DNA of 64,000 nucleotides from Escherichia phage vB_EcoM-Pr121LW. Below the pieces are notes generated by a model. That model saw nothing but the letters and a program-made list of their open reading frames with translations, was not told where the DNA came from and did no database searches. The stretch lies in the sequence record MH752840.1, one strand, 5' to 3'. A program made the translations under genes and the position numbers. Positions 40,041-50,261 of the stretch are shown one piece after another (position 1 is the first letter of the stretch; each line of letters opens with the position of its first letter).

Positions 40041-41246
40041 ATGATTTTCATCTACGAACATTTCAAAACTCGTAAAGAAGCACGCGACCGCCGTGCAGAA
40101 CTTGAGAAGAAGGGTTTCACATGTGCTATTGAGAAAGGTACTACAACATGGACACTGGCAGTAGGTGCCCCAGAGCTGTTTGATCCTGACCGAGACAGTG
40201 TCTGCTATACCCGTGAGGATTTTGAAACCCGCGAAGAGGCCCGTTTATTCCGCTACGGACTGGAAGACAACGGTAAGTACGCCATGATCTTAGATTCAGG
40301 AGAAGGTTCCGTTAAACGTTGGAGTGTGGTATACCCACTGTGCGTTGTTCACGGTGTGGGGTTCACTGGAGTAGCAATCAAGTCAGAAGAACCTTCAGTA
40401 GAAGTCAAAGATCCGGTGCTGGAGGTGGTAAGCAGTGTTTCTCAACAACAGACTCGAAGCATAGAGCCTTTAGTAGTTATTTGTGGAGAACTTCTCCAAA
40501 TCACCTGCAACGAAGGTATTTTTGAAATTCGCCGCAGTGAAAGTGAAGAAGTTTACCAGAAAGTCTTCGACCATATCTCTGTTCAGAAATATGACGAGGC
40601 AATTGGTGAAATCCTTGTCTGGTTGGAACGCAAGAATGAGTTCACTACACTTGCAGACAACCTGATTATGAAAGATGGTAAGCTCTATTACTACGGTGTA
40701 GAGATGCAATCTACCATTGCAAAGAAAATTGAGGAAGATTATGTAGATGGAACACTGGACGACCGATATGTTAAATTCCTTGTCCGTCTGCTACGCAACC
40801 CGTCTGCAAAATCTGTGAACATGCTCTACGATTTCATGCAGGCTAATGACATCCAGGTTGCAGAAGATGGTCGAATCATTTGCTATAAAGGGGTTCAGTT
40901 TAACGGAGGCAAGTGGGTGGATTGGCACAGCGGTAAAGTTCCACAATACCAGGGTGCTTTTGTATCCATGCCTCGTAACTTTGTAGAAGATGATCCGGAA
41001 GCTGCGTGTTCTTATGGCCTGCACTGCGCCAGCAAAGAGTATGCAGCTGGCTATGGCACCGTAATGATGGTTATGGTTGACCCTGCGGATGTGGTTAGTG
41101 TGCCATACCAACACAACAGTGCTAAGTGCCGTGCATGCCGCTACGAAATCGTAGCAGCACCGGAATCACGCAAAGATGGCGATCCGATTGAATACGTAGT
41201 TGACCGTGATGGTAACATCATCGACATTATCTACGAGGAGGCGTAA
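40041..41246 (+). CDS. rIIB: rIIB-like protein
   Basis: C-terminal half (RLLRNPSAKSVNMLYDFMQANDIQVAEDG..., SYGLHCASKEY, VDPADVVSVPYQHNSAKCRACRYEIV) parallels T4 rIIB as recalled from memory. Confidence 0.5.
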   Translation: MIFIYEHFKTRKEARDRRAELEKKGFTCAIEKGTTTWTLAVGAPELFDPDRDSVCYTREDFETREEARLFRYGLEDNGKYAMILDSGEGSVKRWSVVYPLCVVHGVGFTGVAIKSEEPSVEVKDPVLEVVSSVSQQQTRSIEPLVVICGELLQITCNEGIFEIRRSESEEVYQKVFDHISVQKYDEAIGEILVWLERKNEFTTLADNLIMKDGKLYYYGVEMQSTIAKKIEEDYVDGTLDDRYVKFLVRLLRNPSAKSVNMLYDFMQANDIQVAEDGRIICYKGVQFNGGKWVDWHSGKVPQYQGAFVSMPRNFVEDDPEAACSYGLHCASKEYAAGYGTVMMVMVDPADVVSVPYQHNSAKCRACRYEIVAAPESRKDGDPIEYVVDRDGNIIDIIYEEA

Positions 41247-42616
41247 TGGAAAAAGGGCAGTATGACGTAGGCACAGATGCTGCCCTCATTGCAATCATGA
41301 GCGGTGAGAATGTCTTCGTTTCAGGACCCGCAGGTTGTGGGAAGACGTATCTCATCAACATGATCCAGTCCATGTATGGAGACTCTTGCATAACGGTTGC
41401 CCCGACAGGGGTAGCCGCATTAAACGTTAATGGAGCAACAGCACACCGAACATTCGATCTTGCAGCAGGTGTGAGCATGGAGTCGGACTGGACTGCAATA
41501 AGGGCAAAAACAGCAAAGCCTTTGAAAAGCAAGGCATTTACCATCCTAATTATCGATGAAATCTCTATGATCCGTGCTGATAAGTTTATAGAGATGGATA
41601 GGAAACTCCGCTTCCTTCGAAAAAATGACAAACCTTTCGGAGGCATACAGGTCATATTGTTTGGCGATTTTTACCAAGCACCTCCTGTTGTCTCTTCTAT
41701 GGAGAAGGAAGCCTACTTCAACTTCTACCATACGGACCTGTGTTGCTATACCGAATCTTGGAAAGAGCTTGACCTCCACAACATAGCCCTAGTAGATCAG
41801 TTCCGACAGGAGTCTATTCGATTTGCCACAATGCTCAACTGTGTTCGTGAGGGTCGTCGCATAAAAGAGGTTGTAGCAGAACTTAATGCTCGTTGTTACA
41901 AAGGCGGTGTACCAACAGACGCTCTCACAATTTGCGCCACCAACAAACAAGCGGAGGAAGTGAACAGAAGGTTCTATGATGCCATCAACGCCCCAGAAAA
42001 GGTATACACTGGTGAAATGAAGGGTAAGTTTCCCTCCACCCTGCCAGTTGAGCAGGAGATGAAGTTGAAAATTGGCATGAAAGTTATGATAACCGCCAAC
42101 GATGTTGACCCGACGCACAAAGTACCTTATTATGTTAACGGAACACGTGCCACAATTGTTAAATTTAAGAACAAGGCGGTGGTGGTAGAGCTTGAAGATG
42201 GAACACAGGTTGACATAGAACAGAGGTTGTGGGAGAATAACGAGTATAAGCCATCTCAAAGATACAACATTGCAGAAAGGAAGATGGAGAAGTTTATAGA
42301 GAGGGTAGTGATTGGATCATACAAGCAACTTCCTCTGAAATCTGGGTATGCCGTAACATCTCATAAAAGTCAAGGACTTACGCTAGATTGTTACAACCTG
42401 GACCTTGGAAAGAACGGAGCTTTCTCTCCTGGGATGACGTATGTTGCTTTGAGTCGAGTTAAGACAATACAAGGGATAAACTTGTTGCGTCCACTAAGAG
42501 AAGTTGATATTATTGTTGACCCGCGAGTCGTAGAGTTTTACAATACAACATTCCCTGACTTAGACAAAATTGTCAGGAAAGATTTTGAAACCAGAGCAGA
42601 AGAGGGGGACGTATGA
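41246..42616 (+). CDS. SF1B DNA helicase (PIF1/Dda/RecD-like)
   Basis: Walker A VSGPAGCGKTYL, Walker B ILIIDEISM, C-terminal SH3-like region; 456 aa. Confidence 0.7.
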   Translation: MEKGQYDVGTDAALIAIMSGENVFVSGPAGCGKTYLINMIQSMYGDSCITVAPTGVAALNVNGATAHRTFDLAAGVSMESDWTAIRAKTAKPLKSKAFTILIIDEISMIRADKFIEMDRKLRFLRKNDKPFGGIQVILFGDFYQAPPVVSSMEKEAYFNFYHTDLCCYTESWKELDLHNIALVDQFRQESIRFATMLNCVREGRRIKEVVAELNARCYKGGVPTDALTICATNKQAEEVNRRFYDAINAPEKVYTGEMKGKFPSTLPVEQEMKLKIGMKVMITANDVDPTHKVPYYVNGTRATIVKFKNKAVVVELEDGTQVDIEQRLWENNEYKPSQRYNIAERKMEKFIERVVIGSYKQLPLKSGYAVTSHKSQGLTLDCYNLDLGKNGAFSPGMTYVALSRVKTIQGINLLRPLREVDIIVDPRVVEFYNTTFPDLDKIVRKDFETRAEEGDV

Positions 42617-43317: not shown

Positions 43318-43712
43318 TGATTACAGGTGTAAAGATTATCCAATACCACTTAACCAAATTGGAAGATGCTGAAAAAGAGCTTGCAGAAGTTCTGAATAGT
43401 GGATATACTTTGCTATCATGCGCCTGCTCAGATACCTACGCTGTGTGGACACTTACCCGGAAGGAAGAGCCTGCATGGGTCTTGGTGCCAAACCCTAAGA
43501 TTATTAGTGAGGTGGATGACTACCCTCAGGACGGCCTGTCAGAAGACTGGGAAGTATGGGAAGGTGGTGAAAACCCTGCACCAGGTAAGTGGGTAAAATA
43601 TAAACTACGTAGTGGTGCACAGTACGCTGACTACTCTGATAACCTAGACTGGAGTCATTCTTCACTAGGATCGTCTGCAAGTTCATATGATATCGTTGCT
43701 TTTCAGGAATAA
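43317..43712 (+). CDS. hypothetical protein
   Basis: 131-aa ORF, RBS ggaggt. Confidence 0.4.
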   Translation: MITGVKIIQYHLTKLEDAEKELAEVLNSGYTLLSCACSDTYAVWTLTRKEEPAWVLVPNPKIISEVDDYPQDGLSEDWEVWEGGENPAPGKWVKYKLRSGAQYADYSDNLDWSHSSLGSSASSYDIVAFQE

Positions 43713-43724
43713 GGAGAAGGTGGT

Positions 43725-44207
43725 ATGTCAGATTTTATGTGGAAAGTTGGTTATTCCTCCCCTGAAATGTGTAAGGCCTGTTTTGTGAAAATAGGTCGCG
43801 AAGATATCGACAAAGTGATCCTTAAGTTTCGTGATGTGGCTGTGATCGGCAACCGAGTGCTTAAGCACTTAAAGAATCTGAAGCTCACCAAAAAGAAATT
43901 CTTCGGACTTTTCGAAGAGAAAGTTGATGCTTGGACCCATTGCATTCAGGAAGCTAAATCTCACTACAGTGCTATCGTTACCCCAGAACGGGTAGCCAAG
44001 ATGGAAGGACTCATCAACAGCACAGAGTTTGAGTGTCTGAAAGCTGCACTCGATAGTTATCCGAAATGCCTCAAGCACTTGGACAAGTATGTAGAAAAGG
44101 ATGGGGAAATGTATCTCACCCTGGACGCATACTATGAGATGCAAGAAATTTTAAATTTAGATTTGACATTGGTATCCACCGAGTATACAATAGGTATCCG
44201 GGTTTAA
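43725..44207 (+). CDS. hypothetical protein
   Basis: 160-aa ORF, RBS aaggagaagg; terminator follows. Confidence 0.4.
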   Translation: MSDFMWKVGYSSPEMCKACFVKIGREDIDKVILKFRDVAVIGNRVLKHLKNLKLTKKKFFGLFEEKVDAWTHCIQEAKSHYSAIVTPERVAKMEGLINSTEFECLKAALDSYPKCLKHLDKYVEKDGEMYLTLDAYYEMQEILNLDLTLVSTEYTIGIRV

Positions 44208-44213
44208 CACTAG

Positions 44214-44240
44214 GCCCTGCCCGAAAGGGTGGGGCTTTTT
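44214..44240 (+). terminator. rho-independent terminator
   Basis: gccctgcccgaaagggtggggc hairpin (with G-U pairs) followed by ttttt. Confidence 0.7.
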
Positions 44241-44258
44241 GCATTAGGAGACAGCAAA

Positions 44259-45023
44259 TTGAAATTTATCTACAAAGAACACTACCACAAAGGTGTTGTG
44301 TGGAGTCTATTTGACGGGTCTGGTGGTGCAGTCATTGACTGGGCAAAAGCTGGGTACCTGTGCCTGTGCTTTAATGCAGAAGGTGCTGATCACGGCAGTT
44401 ATGCAGAGGTGATAACCGATCATCCCAACATTCACTATGTGGATTATTGGATTGACCCATGGTTCCCTCAGGAAACTTTTTGCATGTACCCAGCTCCAGA
44501 CTTTATTCTTGCATTTCCTCCGTGCACGCATTTAGCGGTATCAGGTGCTGCACATTTTAAGAAAAAGCTGGCTAAGGACCCTATGATCCAAATTAATGCT
44601 GTAAAGGATGCTCGGGTTGCGGAAGAGCTGGGAGAGATTTACGATTGCCCGTGGCATGTAGAGAATCCTGTAGGTGTTATGTCCACACTGTGGCGCAAAC
44701 CTGATTACCGTTTTCATCCTTCTGACTATGGCGGGTATTTACCGGAGGATGATGTAAACCCTTGGTTTCCTGAATTTATAGCTCCACGCGATGCCTATCC
44801 AAAAATAACTTGCGGCTGGATAGGTAATGGATTTATAATCCCGGCCACAAAACCTGTCCCGCAAATAGTTGACGCGGTTAGCGGGTATTCCATGCAACAC
44901 GCTAAGCTAGGTGGAAAAAGTGCAAGGACGAAGATGATTCGAAGCCTCACACCCCGTGGCTGGGCAAAAGCCGTATTCTTAGCAAACGAGCCTGTAGTAA
45001 GGAGCAGAATTAATGGGAAGTAA
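44259..45023 (+). CDS. DNA cytosine-5 methyltransferase-like protein (short form)
   Basis: Motif I-like LFDGSGGAVIDWAKAG, motif IV-like FPPCTHLAVSG, motif VI-like HVENPVGV; start ambiguous (TTG 44259 after RBS aggag, or GTG 44229 inside terminator). Confidence 0.4.
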   Translation: MKFIYKEHYHKGVVWSLFDGSGGAVIDWAKAGYLCLCFNAEGADHGSYAEVITDHPNIHYVDYWIDPWFPQETFCMYPAPDFILAFPPCTHLAVSGAAHFKKKLAKDPMIQINAVKDARVAEELGEIYDCPWHVENPVGVMSTLWRKPDYRFHPSDYGGYLPEDDVNPWFPEFIAPRDAYPKITCGWIGNGFIIPATKPVPQIVDAVSGYSMQHAKLGGKSARTKMIRSLTPRGWAKAVFLANEPVVRSRINGK

Positions 45024-47091
45024 ATTTATGGCATCTGCATATAACCGTTTCGGTGAGCCAAACCCGAAAGCAACTAAGTATAAAAGTGGGGGAAGTGTGA
45101 AACGAGACTATCGTGATGAAAAAGAAGTTGAAACTGTAGAGACTGTTTTAGAAAATACTAAAATCGTCCCTGTCCCACAACAAAATATTGGTCTGATGGC
45201 TGCACAATATTTTGGTGTGCGATCAGCATTGTCCCAAGAAGACGGTGTGACAGTTACTGCAACATATTTCCCATATTACGACCGCTACGGGAATCTGTCC
45301 GGTTTCAAAAAGCGTGACTGGACGATCCCCAAAGAGCAACGTGGGCACTTTACGACGGTTGGGATCGTAAAGGCTAACTCCCAGATGTTTGGGCAAAAGC
45401 TGTGTGCATCTTCTAACAACCGTAAGCAGATTAACGTTTGTGAGGGGGAAGGCGATGTTATTGCAGCATGGCAGGCTGCATATCAGATACAAGTAAAAGG
45501 GATTCTCACCAACGCTAAAGCCCCGGCAAAGGTGAAACAGTGGGCTAAAGAGGTCCAGGACGGGATCGATGCAGTTATCAACGGGGGTGATCTGGCAGGA
45601 AAACCCTGCCTACCTTTTGTTGGAATTAACTGTGGATGTGCAAACGCAGTAGATACTTTTGCAAACAATGAGAAATTTATCCGTAGCTACGGAACAGTGG
45701 TCCTTGCAATGGACAACGATGCAGCTAACGAGGTAGAGAAGCAAAAACACGTTATCAAAGGTGTTGAAGCCACACATAATATCGCGGCATTTTTGATGGC
45801 TGATAACGTTTACCACGTGGAATACCCCAGCGAGGTAAACGATCCTGACGGTGTAAAAGATATCCGTGACATGCTGAAGGCTAAAAAGCTGGAAGATATT
45901 GTCAACATGTTCCGTCACCCAGTCAAATATGTGCCCGATGCTGTATCTGATTTAGAAGACTTCTCCATTGAATCTCTTCGTAAGAAGACTTCTAATGGCG
46001 TAGATATCAGCGCGGAGTTCCCTAAATTACAGAAGATGCTGAAAGGACTCCACAAAGGCACCTTGATGATGCTGACAGGCCCATCTGGCGGTGGTAAAAC
46101 AACTGTAGCCAAGAAACTAGAGCACTGCATTGCAAAATACTTGATGGATCCGACATGCCCTAAAGCCGATGATTATGAAGAGGATGATCGCCTGTGTCTG
46201 ATTCACCTTGAAGAGGACCCTGAGGAAGCAATTAACTCTCTGTACGCCAACCAGTTGGGGTTTGATGTTAAAGAGTTTGTTGAAGACCCTAGTCAGTTCC
46301 TGACTGATCAGGAGCATGCTGAGATTCACCAATCTTGGGCCAAGGCTGGAAAAATCAAAGTGTTCAAGCATTTTGGGTCTATTCCTGTAGATGAGTTGAT
46401 CACTAAGCTTAAACAAATGGTGTGTCTGTATCACTGCCGTTACATTGTGCTGGATCACCTGTCCATGGTAATTTCAGGGCTTAATGTTAAGGATGAGCGC
46501 AAAGAACTTGACATGGCTATGACGCAACTAGCCGCGTTCTGTAAGCAGTTTAATGTATTTATCTTGGTGATCGCTCACCTGAAACGCACAGAGATTGTGC
46601 CTCCAAAGGACAAGGATGGGAATCCGTTACCTTTCTGGTATCCTGTACGAAAAGAGAACCTTCGGGGTAGTGCCGGATTGGAGCAACTTAGCTGGGTAGT
46701 TGTTGGGGTGGAGGCAGAAGAGATGGTGGATCGTTCCCGTGGACGTGTCCGACTGGTAGGTCTTAAAAACCGCCCAGCAAAAACGTTAGGCATTGCGGAT
46801 ACCTTAGTTATGGATCCCCACACAGGTAAGTTCCATGATGCCAGCAACTGGTACTGGGACAAAGAAATGCAGATGTTCACAGACGGCGAAGGTGGGGAAG
46901 TTGTTTGGAGACCTCAAGCTATGTTTGAGGATCAAGAGCACGCAGTTGTAGAAACACCTGTAGGTAGGGTTGTGGCTGATAAGGTTGTAACTCCTACTGT
47001 TAACCCTGTTGACACACAGGAAGACCTTCCGTATGATGATCCGTCCTCTGACCCTGTTCCTGGCTTTGAAGACGATGAAACACCTTTTTAA
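45013..47091 (+). CDS. bifunctional DNA primase / DnaB-family helicase
   Basis: Toprim-like EGEGDVIAAW in N-half; Walker A MLTGPSGGGKTT and helicase motifs in C-half; 692 aa. Confidence 0.75.
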   Translation: MGSKFMASAYNRFGEPNPKATKYKSGGSVKRDYRDEKEVETVETVLENTKIVPVPQQNIGLMAAQYFGVRSALSQEDGVTVTATYFPYYDRYGNLSGFKKRDWTIPKEQRGHFTTVGIVKANSQMFGQKLCASSNNRKQINVCEGEGDVIAAWQAAYQIQVKGILTNAKAPAKVKQWAKEVQDGIDAVINGGDLAGKPCLPFVGINCGCANAVDTFANNEKFIRSYGTVVLAMDNDAANEVEKQKHVIKGVEATHNIAAFLMADNVYHVEYPSEVNDPDGVKDIRDMLKAKKLEDIVNMFRHPVKYVPDAVSDLEDFSIESLRKKTSNGVDISAEFPKLQKMLKGLHKGTLMMLTGPSGGGKTTVAKKLEHCIAKYLMDPTCPKADDYEEDDRLCLIHLEEDPEEAINSLYANQLGFDVKEFVEDPSQFLTDQEHAEIHQSWAKAGKIKVFKHFGSIPVDELITKLKQMVCLYHCRYIVLDHLSMVISGLNVKDERKELDMAMTQLAAFCKQFNVFILVIAHLKRTEIVPPKDKDGNPLPFWYPVRKENLRGSAGLEQLSWVVVGVEAEEMVDRSRGRVRLVGLKNRPAKTLGIADTLVMDPHTGKFHDASNWYWDKEMQMFTDGEGGEVVWRPQAMFEDQEHAVVETPVGRVVADKVVTPTVNPVDTQEDLPYDDPSSDPVPGFEDDETPF

Positions 47092-47149: not shown

Positions 47150-49927
47150 ATGAGTATGTATAGCTTCGATTTTGAGGCCTCTGGGCTTTTGGAAGATCCA
47201 GACCTTTATTATCACTGCGGCCTGTTTAAAGCGTTGAATAAGAACCGTTTTATGCTGTTCCTTCCTCTGAATGACCGCACACACTACTCCGAGGAGGATA
47301 TAGAGAAGGCTAAGAACTTTATTCTGGCAAAGAAAACTCTTTATAAGGATTTTGAAGTTCGCATAGCAGATTTTTCGGAGTTGGAAGGTTGGCTTACAGG
47401 AAATTCTGACTGGTCACCAACAGCTTTGAACTGCCATAACTGCTACAGTTATGACTTTATGCTGATGGAGAGATTGTCCGGTATTCATTTTGATATGTTC
47501 CGTGACCCTAAGTGTATGGGGACTATCAACGACCACCAGGTTAATCTGTTTGATACGTTGGCGATGAGCCGAATCTTGTGGCCTGATCGCCCTTTACCAA
47601 AAGGTTGTCCGGACTCTGTATTCAACCCGGTTACTAAGAAAATGCAGCCTGTTGGTCCTCACGGACTTATGGCATGGGGCTACGCCCTTGGTAACCAGAA
47701 AGTTCAAATTGATGACTGGCGCGATCTTCCGTTGTGGAAGTATGTGGATCGTGTATTCGAGGACGTTATCATCCAGGAGCTGCTCTGGAAAGAGCTGGTA
47801 GCGGAATCAAAAGGTGTATTCTACGGCAAATCTGACATGCAGAACTTTATGTACGATCCTGCCAAAGAGAAGCCGAAAGGGTTCAAGAAGATCACCTGGA
47901 AGAACGCATTACGCCGAGGCATGCTGCAGCACTTCCTGATGGAACTGCAGGCCCGTCAGGGTGTGTATTTTGACATAGATGGAGCTATTGCTTTACGTGA
48001 CCGTTGCGATGCGTGGATGAAAGAAATCGCTGATCGTGTTGAACCTCAACTTCCTTTAAAAGAGTTATCAATATCTCAGCGGCCCAAGTTCCCTGAAAAG
48101 CCGTTTAACCAAGACGGGACAATCTCTAATAATGGTTGGAAATGGTTAAAAGATAAGCTTGGCTATCCTGTAGACATGAGCGCTTTAGATTTCAAATCCC
48201 CGCCTAAGCGAGCATTTACCTCTACAGGAGATGTCAGCAAGATGGGGATAAAATGGTGTGAAGAGATGGGCTGCAAAGACCCCGATAAGATGGCTGATTT
48301 CTTGAGAGGCTATATTAAGGGCACTTCCACACCTCACCCTTTGCCTAAAGAGCTGATGGATCAGGCAATAAGTGATCTACAGCAGAAGCGAATGCCGGAC
48401 TGCAAGATACCTATGAAAATCAGCAATCAGGACGACATTAAGCGGTATCTGATCAGTGCTGGCTGGCTACCGACAATGTGGAGAACTAAGGATGTAACTA
48501 AAGATAGCAAGAAGAAAGCTCTACCTGATGCGGATGTTGATGCACGAGTATATGCATATATGGACGAGCTTTTAGAGTCAGAGTATTGTGACCTGATTAT
48601 CAACTTCTGGAACAAAACTGATGCCAAGTTCCAGACAACTGTGCACAAGTTCCGAAGCTTTCCTAACTCTGAAAGGATTAAAAAGGAAGTATTCGGGAAA
48701 ATACGTAGAAAAGCCAGAGCACTTATTACTTCTCCGCAACTGAAAGATACGTTTGGACACCTGTGTCCGAATCTTGAAAAATTGAACGGAGAGATGGCTA
48801 AAGATATCGTCTTGTGGTTATCATTGCGAAACCGCAGATCAGTCCTTGACCCAATCAAGGAGGATAAGGTTGATACTGGTCTTCTTAATCACCCACGTTT
48901 GAAGATTGACCATAAGCTTCCTGCTAAAAGCTCTGGATTAACAAACACTTCCAGACAGAAACACAGTATTTGTGCAAACATGCCTAAACCATCCCCCAAA
49001 GTGGTTATGGGTAAAGAGATGCGCAGTCTGTGGGGTGTTCCTCCTGGATACTTTCAGATCGGTATTGACGGGTCCAACTTAGAGCAGCTTATCGGGGCTT
49101 GGGGTGCCTTTGAGTTCGACAACGGCTTGTATTATGATGTTGTAAGTAACGGGGACGCACACCAAAACAATGCTGAGGCATATACAAAAGTAGCAGGCAG
49201 AGAGGTGTCTCGTAACGACGGTAAACCTATCACGTATGGGGTTATGTACGGGGCACAAAAAGATAAAGTTGCAGATATGCTGGACATCTCTCCAGAGTTG
49301 GGACAAAGGGTAATCGATGCACTCTGGGATGCCAACCCTGGTCTCAAGGGGCGCAAAGAGGATCTGGAGAAATTCTGGGAAGCAACTGGTAAGAAGTTTA
49401 TCTACTCTTTTGATGGTCATGCTATCTGGACCAGATCTAAACACTCTTTACTTAATGCATACCAACAGAATGGTGGTGCATCGCTGTGTGACTTAGTTGG
49501 GATACTTATGCACCACCAGATGGTGAAGCGTGGGTGGTACGATGAAGGTGTTCGTCGTATTATCTATTACCATGATGAGTACCAACTTCAGGTCCCTGAC
49601 ACTCCTAAGTATAAGACTGTGTACACCTTCGACACAATTGAAGAACTGGAAGCATTTAAGGCAGAGCAGGAGGCCAAACTTCATGTGTTCGACGGTCATA
49701 AGTACAAAAAGGCACGCAAGGATGAGGACGGAAACGAAGTGGTTGACAGAGACGGAAACACGGTGTACGATCCTATCCTGAACGATGACGGAAAGCTTGA
49801 ACTTATCTGGAGCCCTGTGGGTGAAATGGTGGTGCATTGCTTCTGGCAAGCTTCTAAAATGATGGGAGTCCCGTTCCAGATCACAGGTGAATACTTGTGT
49901 GGTCGTAACTGGGGTGATTGTCACTAA
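47150..49927 (+). CDS. family A DNA polymerase with 3-prime to 5-prime exonuclease domain
   Basis: Exo I-like FDFEASG; motif A IDGSNLEQL; motif B RNDGKPITYGVMYG; motif C YYHDEYQL; 925 aa. Confidence 0.8.
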   Translation: MSMYSFDFEASGLLEDPDLYYHCGLFKALNKNRFMLFLPLNDRTHYSEEDIEKAKNFILAKKTLYKDFEVRIADFSELEGWLTGNSDWSPTALNCHNCYSYDFMLMERLSGIHFDMFRDPKCMGTINDHQVNLFDTLAMSRILWPDRPLPKGCPDSVFNPVTKKMQPVGPHGLMAWGYALGNQKVQIDDWRDLPLWKYVDRVFEDVIIQELLWKELVAESKGVFYGKSDMQNFMYDPAKEKPKGFKKITWKNALRRGMLQHFLMELQARQGVYFDIDGAIALRDRCDAWMKEIADRVEPQLPLKELSISQRPKFPEKPFNQDGTISNNGWKWLKDKLGYPVDMSALDFKSPPKRAFTSTGDVSKMGIKWCEEMGCKDPDKMADFLRGYIKGTSTPHPLPKELMDQAISDLQQKRMPDCKIPMKISNQDDIKRYLISAGWLPTMWRTKDVTKDSKKKALPDADVDARVYAYMDELLESEYCDLIINFWNKTDAKFQTTVHKFRSFPNSERIKKEVFGKIRRKARALITSPQLKDTFGHLCPNLEKLNGEMAKDIVLWLSLRNRRSVLDPIKEDKVDTGLLNHPRLKIDHKLPAKSSGLTNTSRQKHSICANMPKPSPKVVMGKEMRSLWGVPPGYFQIGIDGSNLEQLIGAWGAFEFDNGLYYDVVSNGDAHQNNAEAYTKVAGREVSRNDGKPITYGVMYGAQKDKVADMLDISPELGQRVIDALWDANPGLKGRKEDLEKFWEATGKKFIYSFDGHAIWTRSKHSLLNAYQQNGGASLCDLVGILMHHQMVKRGWYDEGVRRIIYYHDEYQLQVPDTPKYKTVYTFDTIEELEAFKAEQEAKLHVFDGHKYKKARKDEDGNEVVDRDGNTVYDPILNDDGKLELIWSPVGEMVVHCFWQASKMMGVPFQITGEYLCGRNWGDCH

Positions 49928-49976
49928 TGTAAACTATCAGCACAGGGAGGTGCTGTCAAGCAAAGAGGAAACTTTT

Positions 49977-50261
49977 ATGGTAGTAGAACCAACAAAAACA
50001 TTTACATCCATGACTATTCCTGTTATTATGCAGGTGGAGTGTGTTCAGGTATCTCAAGTGTGGCCTGGCACCAAAATCCCAACAGGGCCTGATTTCTTTC
50101 AGGTTGGGAAAGTGTACAATGTCTGGAAGGCACCAGATTGTTACCCTTTCATTAAAGATGACCGTGGGATGCTGTGGTACCTTGGAAATGACTTGACACT
50201 GCACCTTGGGAATACTATTATTGCAGTATTCAGACTTAACAAGAAGGAGACCGATCAATGA
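49977..50261 (+). CDS. small protein, paralog family member
   Basis: ATG 49977 with RBS aagagga; shares FxxGKxY ... KDDxGxxWY motif with neighbours. Confidence 0.4.
   Translation: MVVEPTKTFTSMTIPVIMQVECVQVSQVWPGTKIPTGPDFFQVGKVYNVWKAPDCYPFIKDDRGMLWYLGNDLTLHLGNTIIAVFRLNKKETDQ

Follow-up and report, generated by a model that had tools for sequence, protein, structure and literature searches.

A phage-encoded Dcm-type cytosine methylase has been studied functionally in phage K42, a strain of KarlJaspers with 95.4% genome identity to Bas06 (bioRxiv 10.1101/2023.08.16.553469). The 711-bp K42 Dcm raised 5-methylcytosine (5mC) in the msDNA of retron Ec86, as measured by LC-MS, and a quadruple mutant (C82A/E128A/K175A/K176A), in which K175 was changed as a substrate-binding residue, gave no 5mC rise in msDNA. 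In the same study, expression of K42 Dcm was toxic only when the retron was present, and mutation of the CCTGG in the msDNA stem abolished defence. The authors modelled the enzyme on DNMT3A; its CCWGG specificity was assumed from E. coli Dcm, with the msDNA CCTGG mutation as the sole support (bioRxiv 10.1101/2023.08.16.553469). The Dcm result with retron Ec86/Eco1 is restated in PMC12640716, which cites the version of the study published in Cell Reports in 2024.

Canonical cytosine-5 (C5) methyltransferases of the Pfam family PF00145, among them M.HhaI (327 aa), M.HaeIII and E. coli Dcm, contain a large variable target-recognition domain. DNMT3A and DNMT3B have a very short target-recognition region. 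A further described enzyme, the phage DNA cytosine C5-carboxymethyltransferase CmoX (PDB 8YF3, 372 aa), is characterized by an SPPC motif and Arg350, and its gene adjoins those of CmoA and CmoY. Here, we describe a gene of Escherichia phage vB_EcoM-Pr121LW (MH752840.1), found in a stretch of 64,000 nucleotides (the window). The gene belongs to PHROG 757, a compact family specific to phages, and very probably encodes an active orphan SAM-dependent DNA cytosine-5 methyltransferase.

The region around the gene shares 99.9% identity with Escherichia phage LL12 and 97.4% with rV5 (Vequintavirus), and 115 of the 116 matching phage records carry this region, with the gene, in full. The gene is already known: its counterpart in LL12 (CPT_LL12_214) is annotated as ‘DNA cytosine methyltransferase’ and that in rV5 (gp226) as ‘DNA methyltransferase’, while the BASEL phages label it ‘Dcm-like C5 cytosine methyltransferase’. 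Sixteen records named ‘Campylobacter phage’, with Campylobacter jejuni given as the host in most, match positions 43700-45100 in megablast with a DNA identity of at least 90%, and one of them, MG065661.1, has 98.4% protein identity; these host assignments appear questionable, unless the preparations were mixed.

The coding sequence occupies 44259..45023 on the + strand, from a TTG start codon to a TAA stop codon (45021-45023), and specifies 254 aa. It is surrounded by a helicase gene (41246-42616), four small hypothetical genes, a primase/helicase gene (45013-47091) and the gene of DNA polymerase A (from 47150), so that an earlier reading of the DNA from its letters alone (the sequence-only reading) had rightly placed it in the replication module. 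The polymerase reading frame stops at 49927, within a gene of about 47150-50203; LL12 annotates DNA polymerase A as interrupted by an intron, in two joined pieces that end at about window position 50203. No restriction endonuclease gene adjoins the methylase in LL12 or rV5, where the neighbours are hypothetical proteins, helicase, primase/helicase and polymerase. A chromosomal homologue in a lambdoid prophage of E. coli adjoins Dam, and none of the neighbours of this copy matched a Pfam restriction-endonuclease family, many of them having no Pfam match of any kind. This prophage copy is on the E. coli contig JBRAPV010000005.1 (6494-8747), where it is found two genes downstream of a Dam-type adenine methylase, within the NinG/RusA/Q region; the genome of KarlJaspers also holds one methylase of each kind, Dam-like and Dcm-like.

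The sequence-only reading had left the start open between TTG 44259 and GTG 44229. Both codons do open the reading frame, but the choice can be settled in favor of TTG 44259, because a Shine-Dalgarno sequence, AGGAGA (44246..44251, + strand), precedes it by 7 nt, because GTG 44229 falls within a hairpin, and because TTG 44259 is the start in both the LL12 and rV5 annotations. The LL12 record also annotates a ribosome-binding site at the place of this AGGAGA. GTG 44229 sits on the 3' side of the hairpin stem; it lacks a ribosome-binding site, and the reference annotations do not use it. The hairpin itself (44212..44237, + strand) is GC-rich, with 11 pairs closed by a GAAA loop and followed by a T-run, and looks like a terminator of the upstream gene, a structure in the 5' leader of the methylase mRNA, or both.

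Further upstream, in the 3' end of the preceding ORF, lies a strong sigma-70-type promoter (44163..44191, + strand; TTGACA-17 nt-TACAAT, 11 of 12 matches), which corresponds to P231 in the rV5 annotation. Positions 44163-44258 thus hold, in this order, a promoter, a terminator-like hairpin with its T-run within about 20 nt, and a Shine-Dalgarno sequence. As P231 lies ahead of the hairpin, its transcript must either read through or begin with that structure, which could act as an attenuator or as a 5' stabilizer. The 108 nt ahead of the start codon, which contain all three elements, do not differ from rV5, in contrast to 23 differences in the coding sequence. At the other end, the last 11 nt of the methylase gene (45013..45023, + strand) overlap the beginning of the primase/helicase gene at its ATG, which suggests co-transcription of the two genes and makes translational coupling possible.

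The motif I-, IV- and VI-like stretches lie where the sequence-only reading had seen them. Motif I (LFDGSGG...; 44307..44354, + strand) spans residues 17-32, LFDGSGGAVIDWAKAG, and comprises the glycine loop after strand 1 and the next helix, a cofactor-binding element; in the predicted model, the strand covers residues 13-17 and the helix residues 23-30. Its F18-D-G20-S-G22 aligns to the FxGxG of M.HhaI, M.HaeIII, Dcm and CmoX, and the wider family, defined here by a conservation profile of 91 homologues with identities to the query down to 31%, has the consensus LFDxTG. Motif IV (FPPCTHLAVSG, residues 86-96; 44514..44546, + strand) contains the predicted catalytic nucleophile, Cys89 (codon 44523-44525), which is invariant in the 91 homologues and is aligned with the PC dipeptide found in canonical enzymes. 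Motif VI (HVENPVGV, residues 133-140; 44655..44678, + strand) is of the ENV type, here ENP, with Pro in place of Val: Glu135 (codon 44661-44663) is invariant and Asn136 and Pro137 are at least 90% conserved. Phe86, Pro87, Thr90, Lys182, Arg228 and Ser229 reach the same level of conservation.

The part of the family that is best conserved follows motif VI, at residues of about 136-195. Within it, a family-specific block at residues 145-195 (44691..44843, + strand) reads WRKPD..F.P.DYGGYLP...RDAYPK.TC.W.G.GF..P, and Asp178, Tyr180, Lys182 and Thr184 are conserved in at least 90% of the 91 homologues. Arg177 and Lys182, in RDAYPK(I/K)TC, are candidates for motif VIII (QxRxR), whose arginines touch the flipped cytosine, in a region over which no alignment was significant. 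The main variable stretch of the C-terminal half is a loop at residues 196-216 (44844..44906, + strand), which occurs in two subtypes, GYSxQHxKLGGKS (GYSxQH) and D(x)NPGWAKxGGKS (NPGW). It is followed by a C-terminal conserved block, LGGKSARTKMIRSLTPRGWAKAVFLAN (44907..44987, + strand; LGGKS.RTK.IRSLTPRGFA.AVF), in which conservation reaches 90% or more at Arg228, Ser229, Pro232 and Gly234 and for which the model has two helices (222-229 and 233-251). This single block, represented by IRSLTPRGWAKAVF, resembles both motif IX (RRLTPRECARL in E. coli Dcm) and motif X with the final helix; in C5 methyltransferases, these two motifs are the GN-type loop and the helix at the C-terminus by which the cofactor site is completed. 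The hhalign comparison of the C-terminal part to motifs VIII-X was not significant (E 0.46), and global alignment is unreliable there.

The relationship to known methyltransferases is apparent at the level of families. An HMM search of methyltransferase families, which the sequence-only reading had proposed as a check, was clearly positive for PHROG 757 ‘DNA methyltransferase’ (E 5.3e-87, residues 2-251 on profile positions 5-226 of 247); the window protein itself matched no Pfam family, PF00145 included, and no NCBIfam family. Among 34 homologues, however, five matched PF00145 at E 0.01 or better, and three homologues at about 56% identity exceeded the gathering threshold of 22 with 24.7-28.5 bits, their matches covering only profile positions 4-94, that is motifs I-IV. 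Homologues were found by tblastn in 1,505 phage records, in groups that include T1-like Drexlerviridae, Klebsiella Webervirus-type phages, Dhillonvirus, and Salmonella and Vibrio phages; a profile search returned 2,042 clusters at 50% identity, and among the matches listed the length is mostly roughly 210-260 aa.

When the 91-homologue profile was compared by local hhalign with four aligned sequences, those of M.HhaI, M.HaeIII, E. coli Dcm and CmoX, of which the last two came from database records, the probability was 90% and E was 1.5e-6. The local alignment paired LFDxTG with FxGxG and FPPC with (P)PC, and a global alignment also paired ENP of motif VI with ENV. Against the single sequence of E. 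coli Dcm, motif IV alone was aligned. Searches of PDB-chain sequences with the single protein and with the 34- and 91-sequence profiles gave weak matches (E 0.35-1) to M.HaeIII, DNMT3B and DNMT2 over motifs I-IV.

The predicted structure points in the same direction. The AlphaFold2 model, built from a 34-sequence alignment, has a pLDDT of 89 and a pTM of 0.88 and displays alternating strands and helices. The top Foldseek matches are the catalytic domains of DNMT3A and DNMT3B, at 13-17% identity to the phage protein, and the predicted Rossmann-like class I methyltransferase core is most similar to C5 methyltransferases. Fold and motifs I, IV and VI together uphold the earlier description of a C5-methyltransferase-like protein. 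In a library of viral structures, the fold recurs among phage ‘DNA-cytosine methylases’ and also forms one domain of helicase-containing proteins of more than 1,000 aa. Two large BFVD proteins of uncultured phages, A0A6J5SE15 (1397 aa) and A0A6J5NPY6 (1126 aa), have a domain of this fold at 23-27% identity; one of them is named ‘Helicase/UvrB, N-terminal’, and the arrangement is reminiscent of methylase-helicase anti-restriction proteins.

The small size stressed by the sequence-only reading is real, as the phage protein is about 70-220 residues shorter than E. coli Dcm, M.HhaI and M.HaeIII. Its further statement that the protein is too short for a target-recognition domain holds for a large variable domain, but is overstated in that residues of about 145-216 take this position and the best structural matches, DNMT3A and DNMT3B, also have a very short region there. 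The canonical variable domain between motifs VIII and IX has no counterpart: the region extends over at most about 70 aa and, unlike the canonical domain, is mostly the best-conserved part of the family, with variation at 196-216. The protein looks like a DNMT3-like minimal architecture, built by a short conserved segment (about 145-195) and one variable loop (196-216). It differs from DNMT3A/DNMT3B in having no regulatory domains and in C-terminal motifs that are unalignable by sequence, and from the canonical enzymes in having neither a PF00145 match nor a partner restriction enzyme. We infer that residues 145-195 may be the segment that contacts the DNA and the target base in place of a canonical target-recognition domain, with the loop at 196-216 as a candidate specificity determinant.

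A direct comparison is possible with the tested enzyme of K42/KarlJaspers. Over 235 aa, the product of bas06_0055 in KarlJaspers (MZ501090; 711 bp) shares 54% identity with the window protein (E 2e-86), so that the latter belongs to a family in which a DNA 5mC methyltransferase has been tested functionally. Both proteins belong to PHROG 757 and to the same length class, both are orphan and phage-encoded, and conservation extends to the catalytic Cys, the Glu of motif VI and the first of the two lysines in the PKK motif: C82, E128 and K175 of K42 Dcm correspond to C89, E135 and K182. In contrast, K176 is replaced by Ile183, the loop is of the GYSxQH subtype in the Pr121LW phage protein and of the NPGW subtype in K42/KarlJaspers Dcm, and the window protein has an N-terminal extension of 10-12 aa. 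The carriers also differ, a T1-like siphovirus in one case and a myovirus Vequintavirus here. Given the change at Ile183 and the different loop subtype, the specificity may differ from that of K42 Dcm.

The sequence-only reading had considered that the protein might be an inactive relic, a pseudo-enzyme that has kept the fold and lost the activity. The small size, the lack of a Pfam match for the window protein and motifs VIII-X that are unrecognizable by sequence would fit such a protein, but selection at the locus argues against it. The 23 nucleotide differences from rV5 translate into 22 synonymous codon changes and one non-synonymous change (M109L), which, together with the invariant Cys89 and Glu135, indicates strong purifying selection. 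The gene moreover has its own conserved promoter, and a homologue at 54% identity is active in vivo, where it makes 5mC; we therefore regard loss of activity as the least probable explanation, to be given hardly any weight. Almost as improbable is an enzyme with another substrate or another transferred group: a DNMT2-like RNA or tRNA m5C methyltransferase, an enzyme of free nucleotides, or a CmoX-like enzyme that transfers a carboxymethyl group from Cx-SAM for hypermodification. An RNA or nucleotide substrate is unlikely, as DNMT2 structures score lower than DNA methyltransferases in the structure comparison and the tested homologue acts on DNA. With regard to carboxymethylation, Arg228 is a candidate for the CmoX-type Arg (the position of M.HhaI Asn304) in a C-terminal hhalign of E 0.46; the phage protein differs from CmoX, however, in having FPPC rather than SPPC and in belonging to a family whose tested member makes 5mC, and no tblastn match to CmoA or CmoY below E 0.27 was found in the window.

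The rival explanation that has to be weighed most seriously concerns not activity but purpose, namely that the protein is an active DNA C5 methyltransferase whose main role is other than classical restriction evasion. It might mark phage DNA for the control of replication or packaging, act against a different defence system or modify the DNA of the host. The position of the gene, within the replication module and with an overlap into the primase/helicase gene, would suit such a role. In the BASEL study, the Vequintavirinae, which carry the gene, were ‘exceptionally susceptible’ to all six restriction-modification systems tested (EcoKI, EcoCFT_I, EcoRI, EcoRV, EcoCFT_II and EcoP1_I), and in the Drexlerviridae resistance to restriction was not linked in any simple way to methyltransferase genes. 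Both observations favor a role outside restriction, and the sensitivity implies that any protective benefit would be narrow. On the other hand, none of the six systems is known to recognize a CCWGG-type site, so that these tests would miss the relevant enzymes and the BASEL data are not contrary to an anti-restriction function; orphan phage methylases are, besides, classically protective. We consider a main role apart from restriction a possibility worth keeping, yet distinctly the less probable one. The anti-restriction use put forward by the sequence-only reading is accordingly plausible in kind, and must be narrowed in extent.

For an active DNA cytosine methyltransferase, the conserved chemistry of C5 methyltransferases would imply the following course. 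The cofactor would be held by motif I (FDGSGG) and by acidic or polar residues after strands 2 and 3, and the target cytosine would be flipped into the pocket. Cys89 of motif IV (FPPC) would then attack C6, with N3 protonated by Glu135 of motif VI (ENP); C5 would receive the cofactor's methyl group, and beta-elimination would free the enzyme. Its own sigma-70-type promoter and the overlap just upstream of the primase/helicase gene suggest that the enzyme is produced with the replication proteins, and it would probably methylate new phage DNA as well as whatever other DNA the cell contains. The benefit would most likely be protection from 5-methylcytosine-sensitive restriction enzymes.

The sequence methylated may be of the Dcm type (CCWGG). 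Methylation of this type protects against EcoRII-type enzymes and is not known to create a substrate for McrBC, and it might serve as a ‘safe’ mark in enterobacteria. The composition of the DNA gives no indication of the target: the window contains 105 CCWGG sites, at an observed/expected ratio of 0.67 that says nothing on the target, and the strong depletion of RCCGGY in the 64,000 nt (2 observed against 12.8 expected) is not target evidence either. The CG dinucleotide, CCGG, CTAG and GTAC each occur in the window at about 0.65-0.7 of expectation, and GATC, at 0.93, is not depleted. The literature searched yielded no usable methylome or restriction data, either for rV5-like phages or for the T1 ‘dcm’. 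Methylation also has a cost within the family, since 5mC can trigger abortive infection by retron Ec86/Eco1 (bioRxiv 10.1101/2023.08.16.553469).

As a discovery, the gene is minor, because it is annotated in near-identical genomes and a member of its family has been functionally studied. A bolder interpretation, which we regard as rather improbable, is that of a truly minimal C5 methyltransferase with no canonical target-recognition domain and possibly with one of motifs IX and X missing, in which the conserved core reads the target; the specificity in Vequintavirus might then not be CCWGG and the role not anti-restriction. If true, this would be the smallest known natural scaffold of a sequence-specific or low-specificity DNA cytosine methyltransferase. 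Specificity without a canonical target-recognition domain, in roughly 210-260 aa, is relevant to compact methylation tools. For the biology of these phages, a puzzle stands out: they are very sensitive to restriction and keep the gene under strong purifying selection, even though the same kind of activity can trigger retron Eco1.
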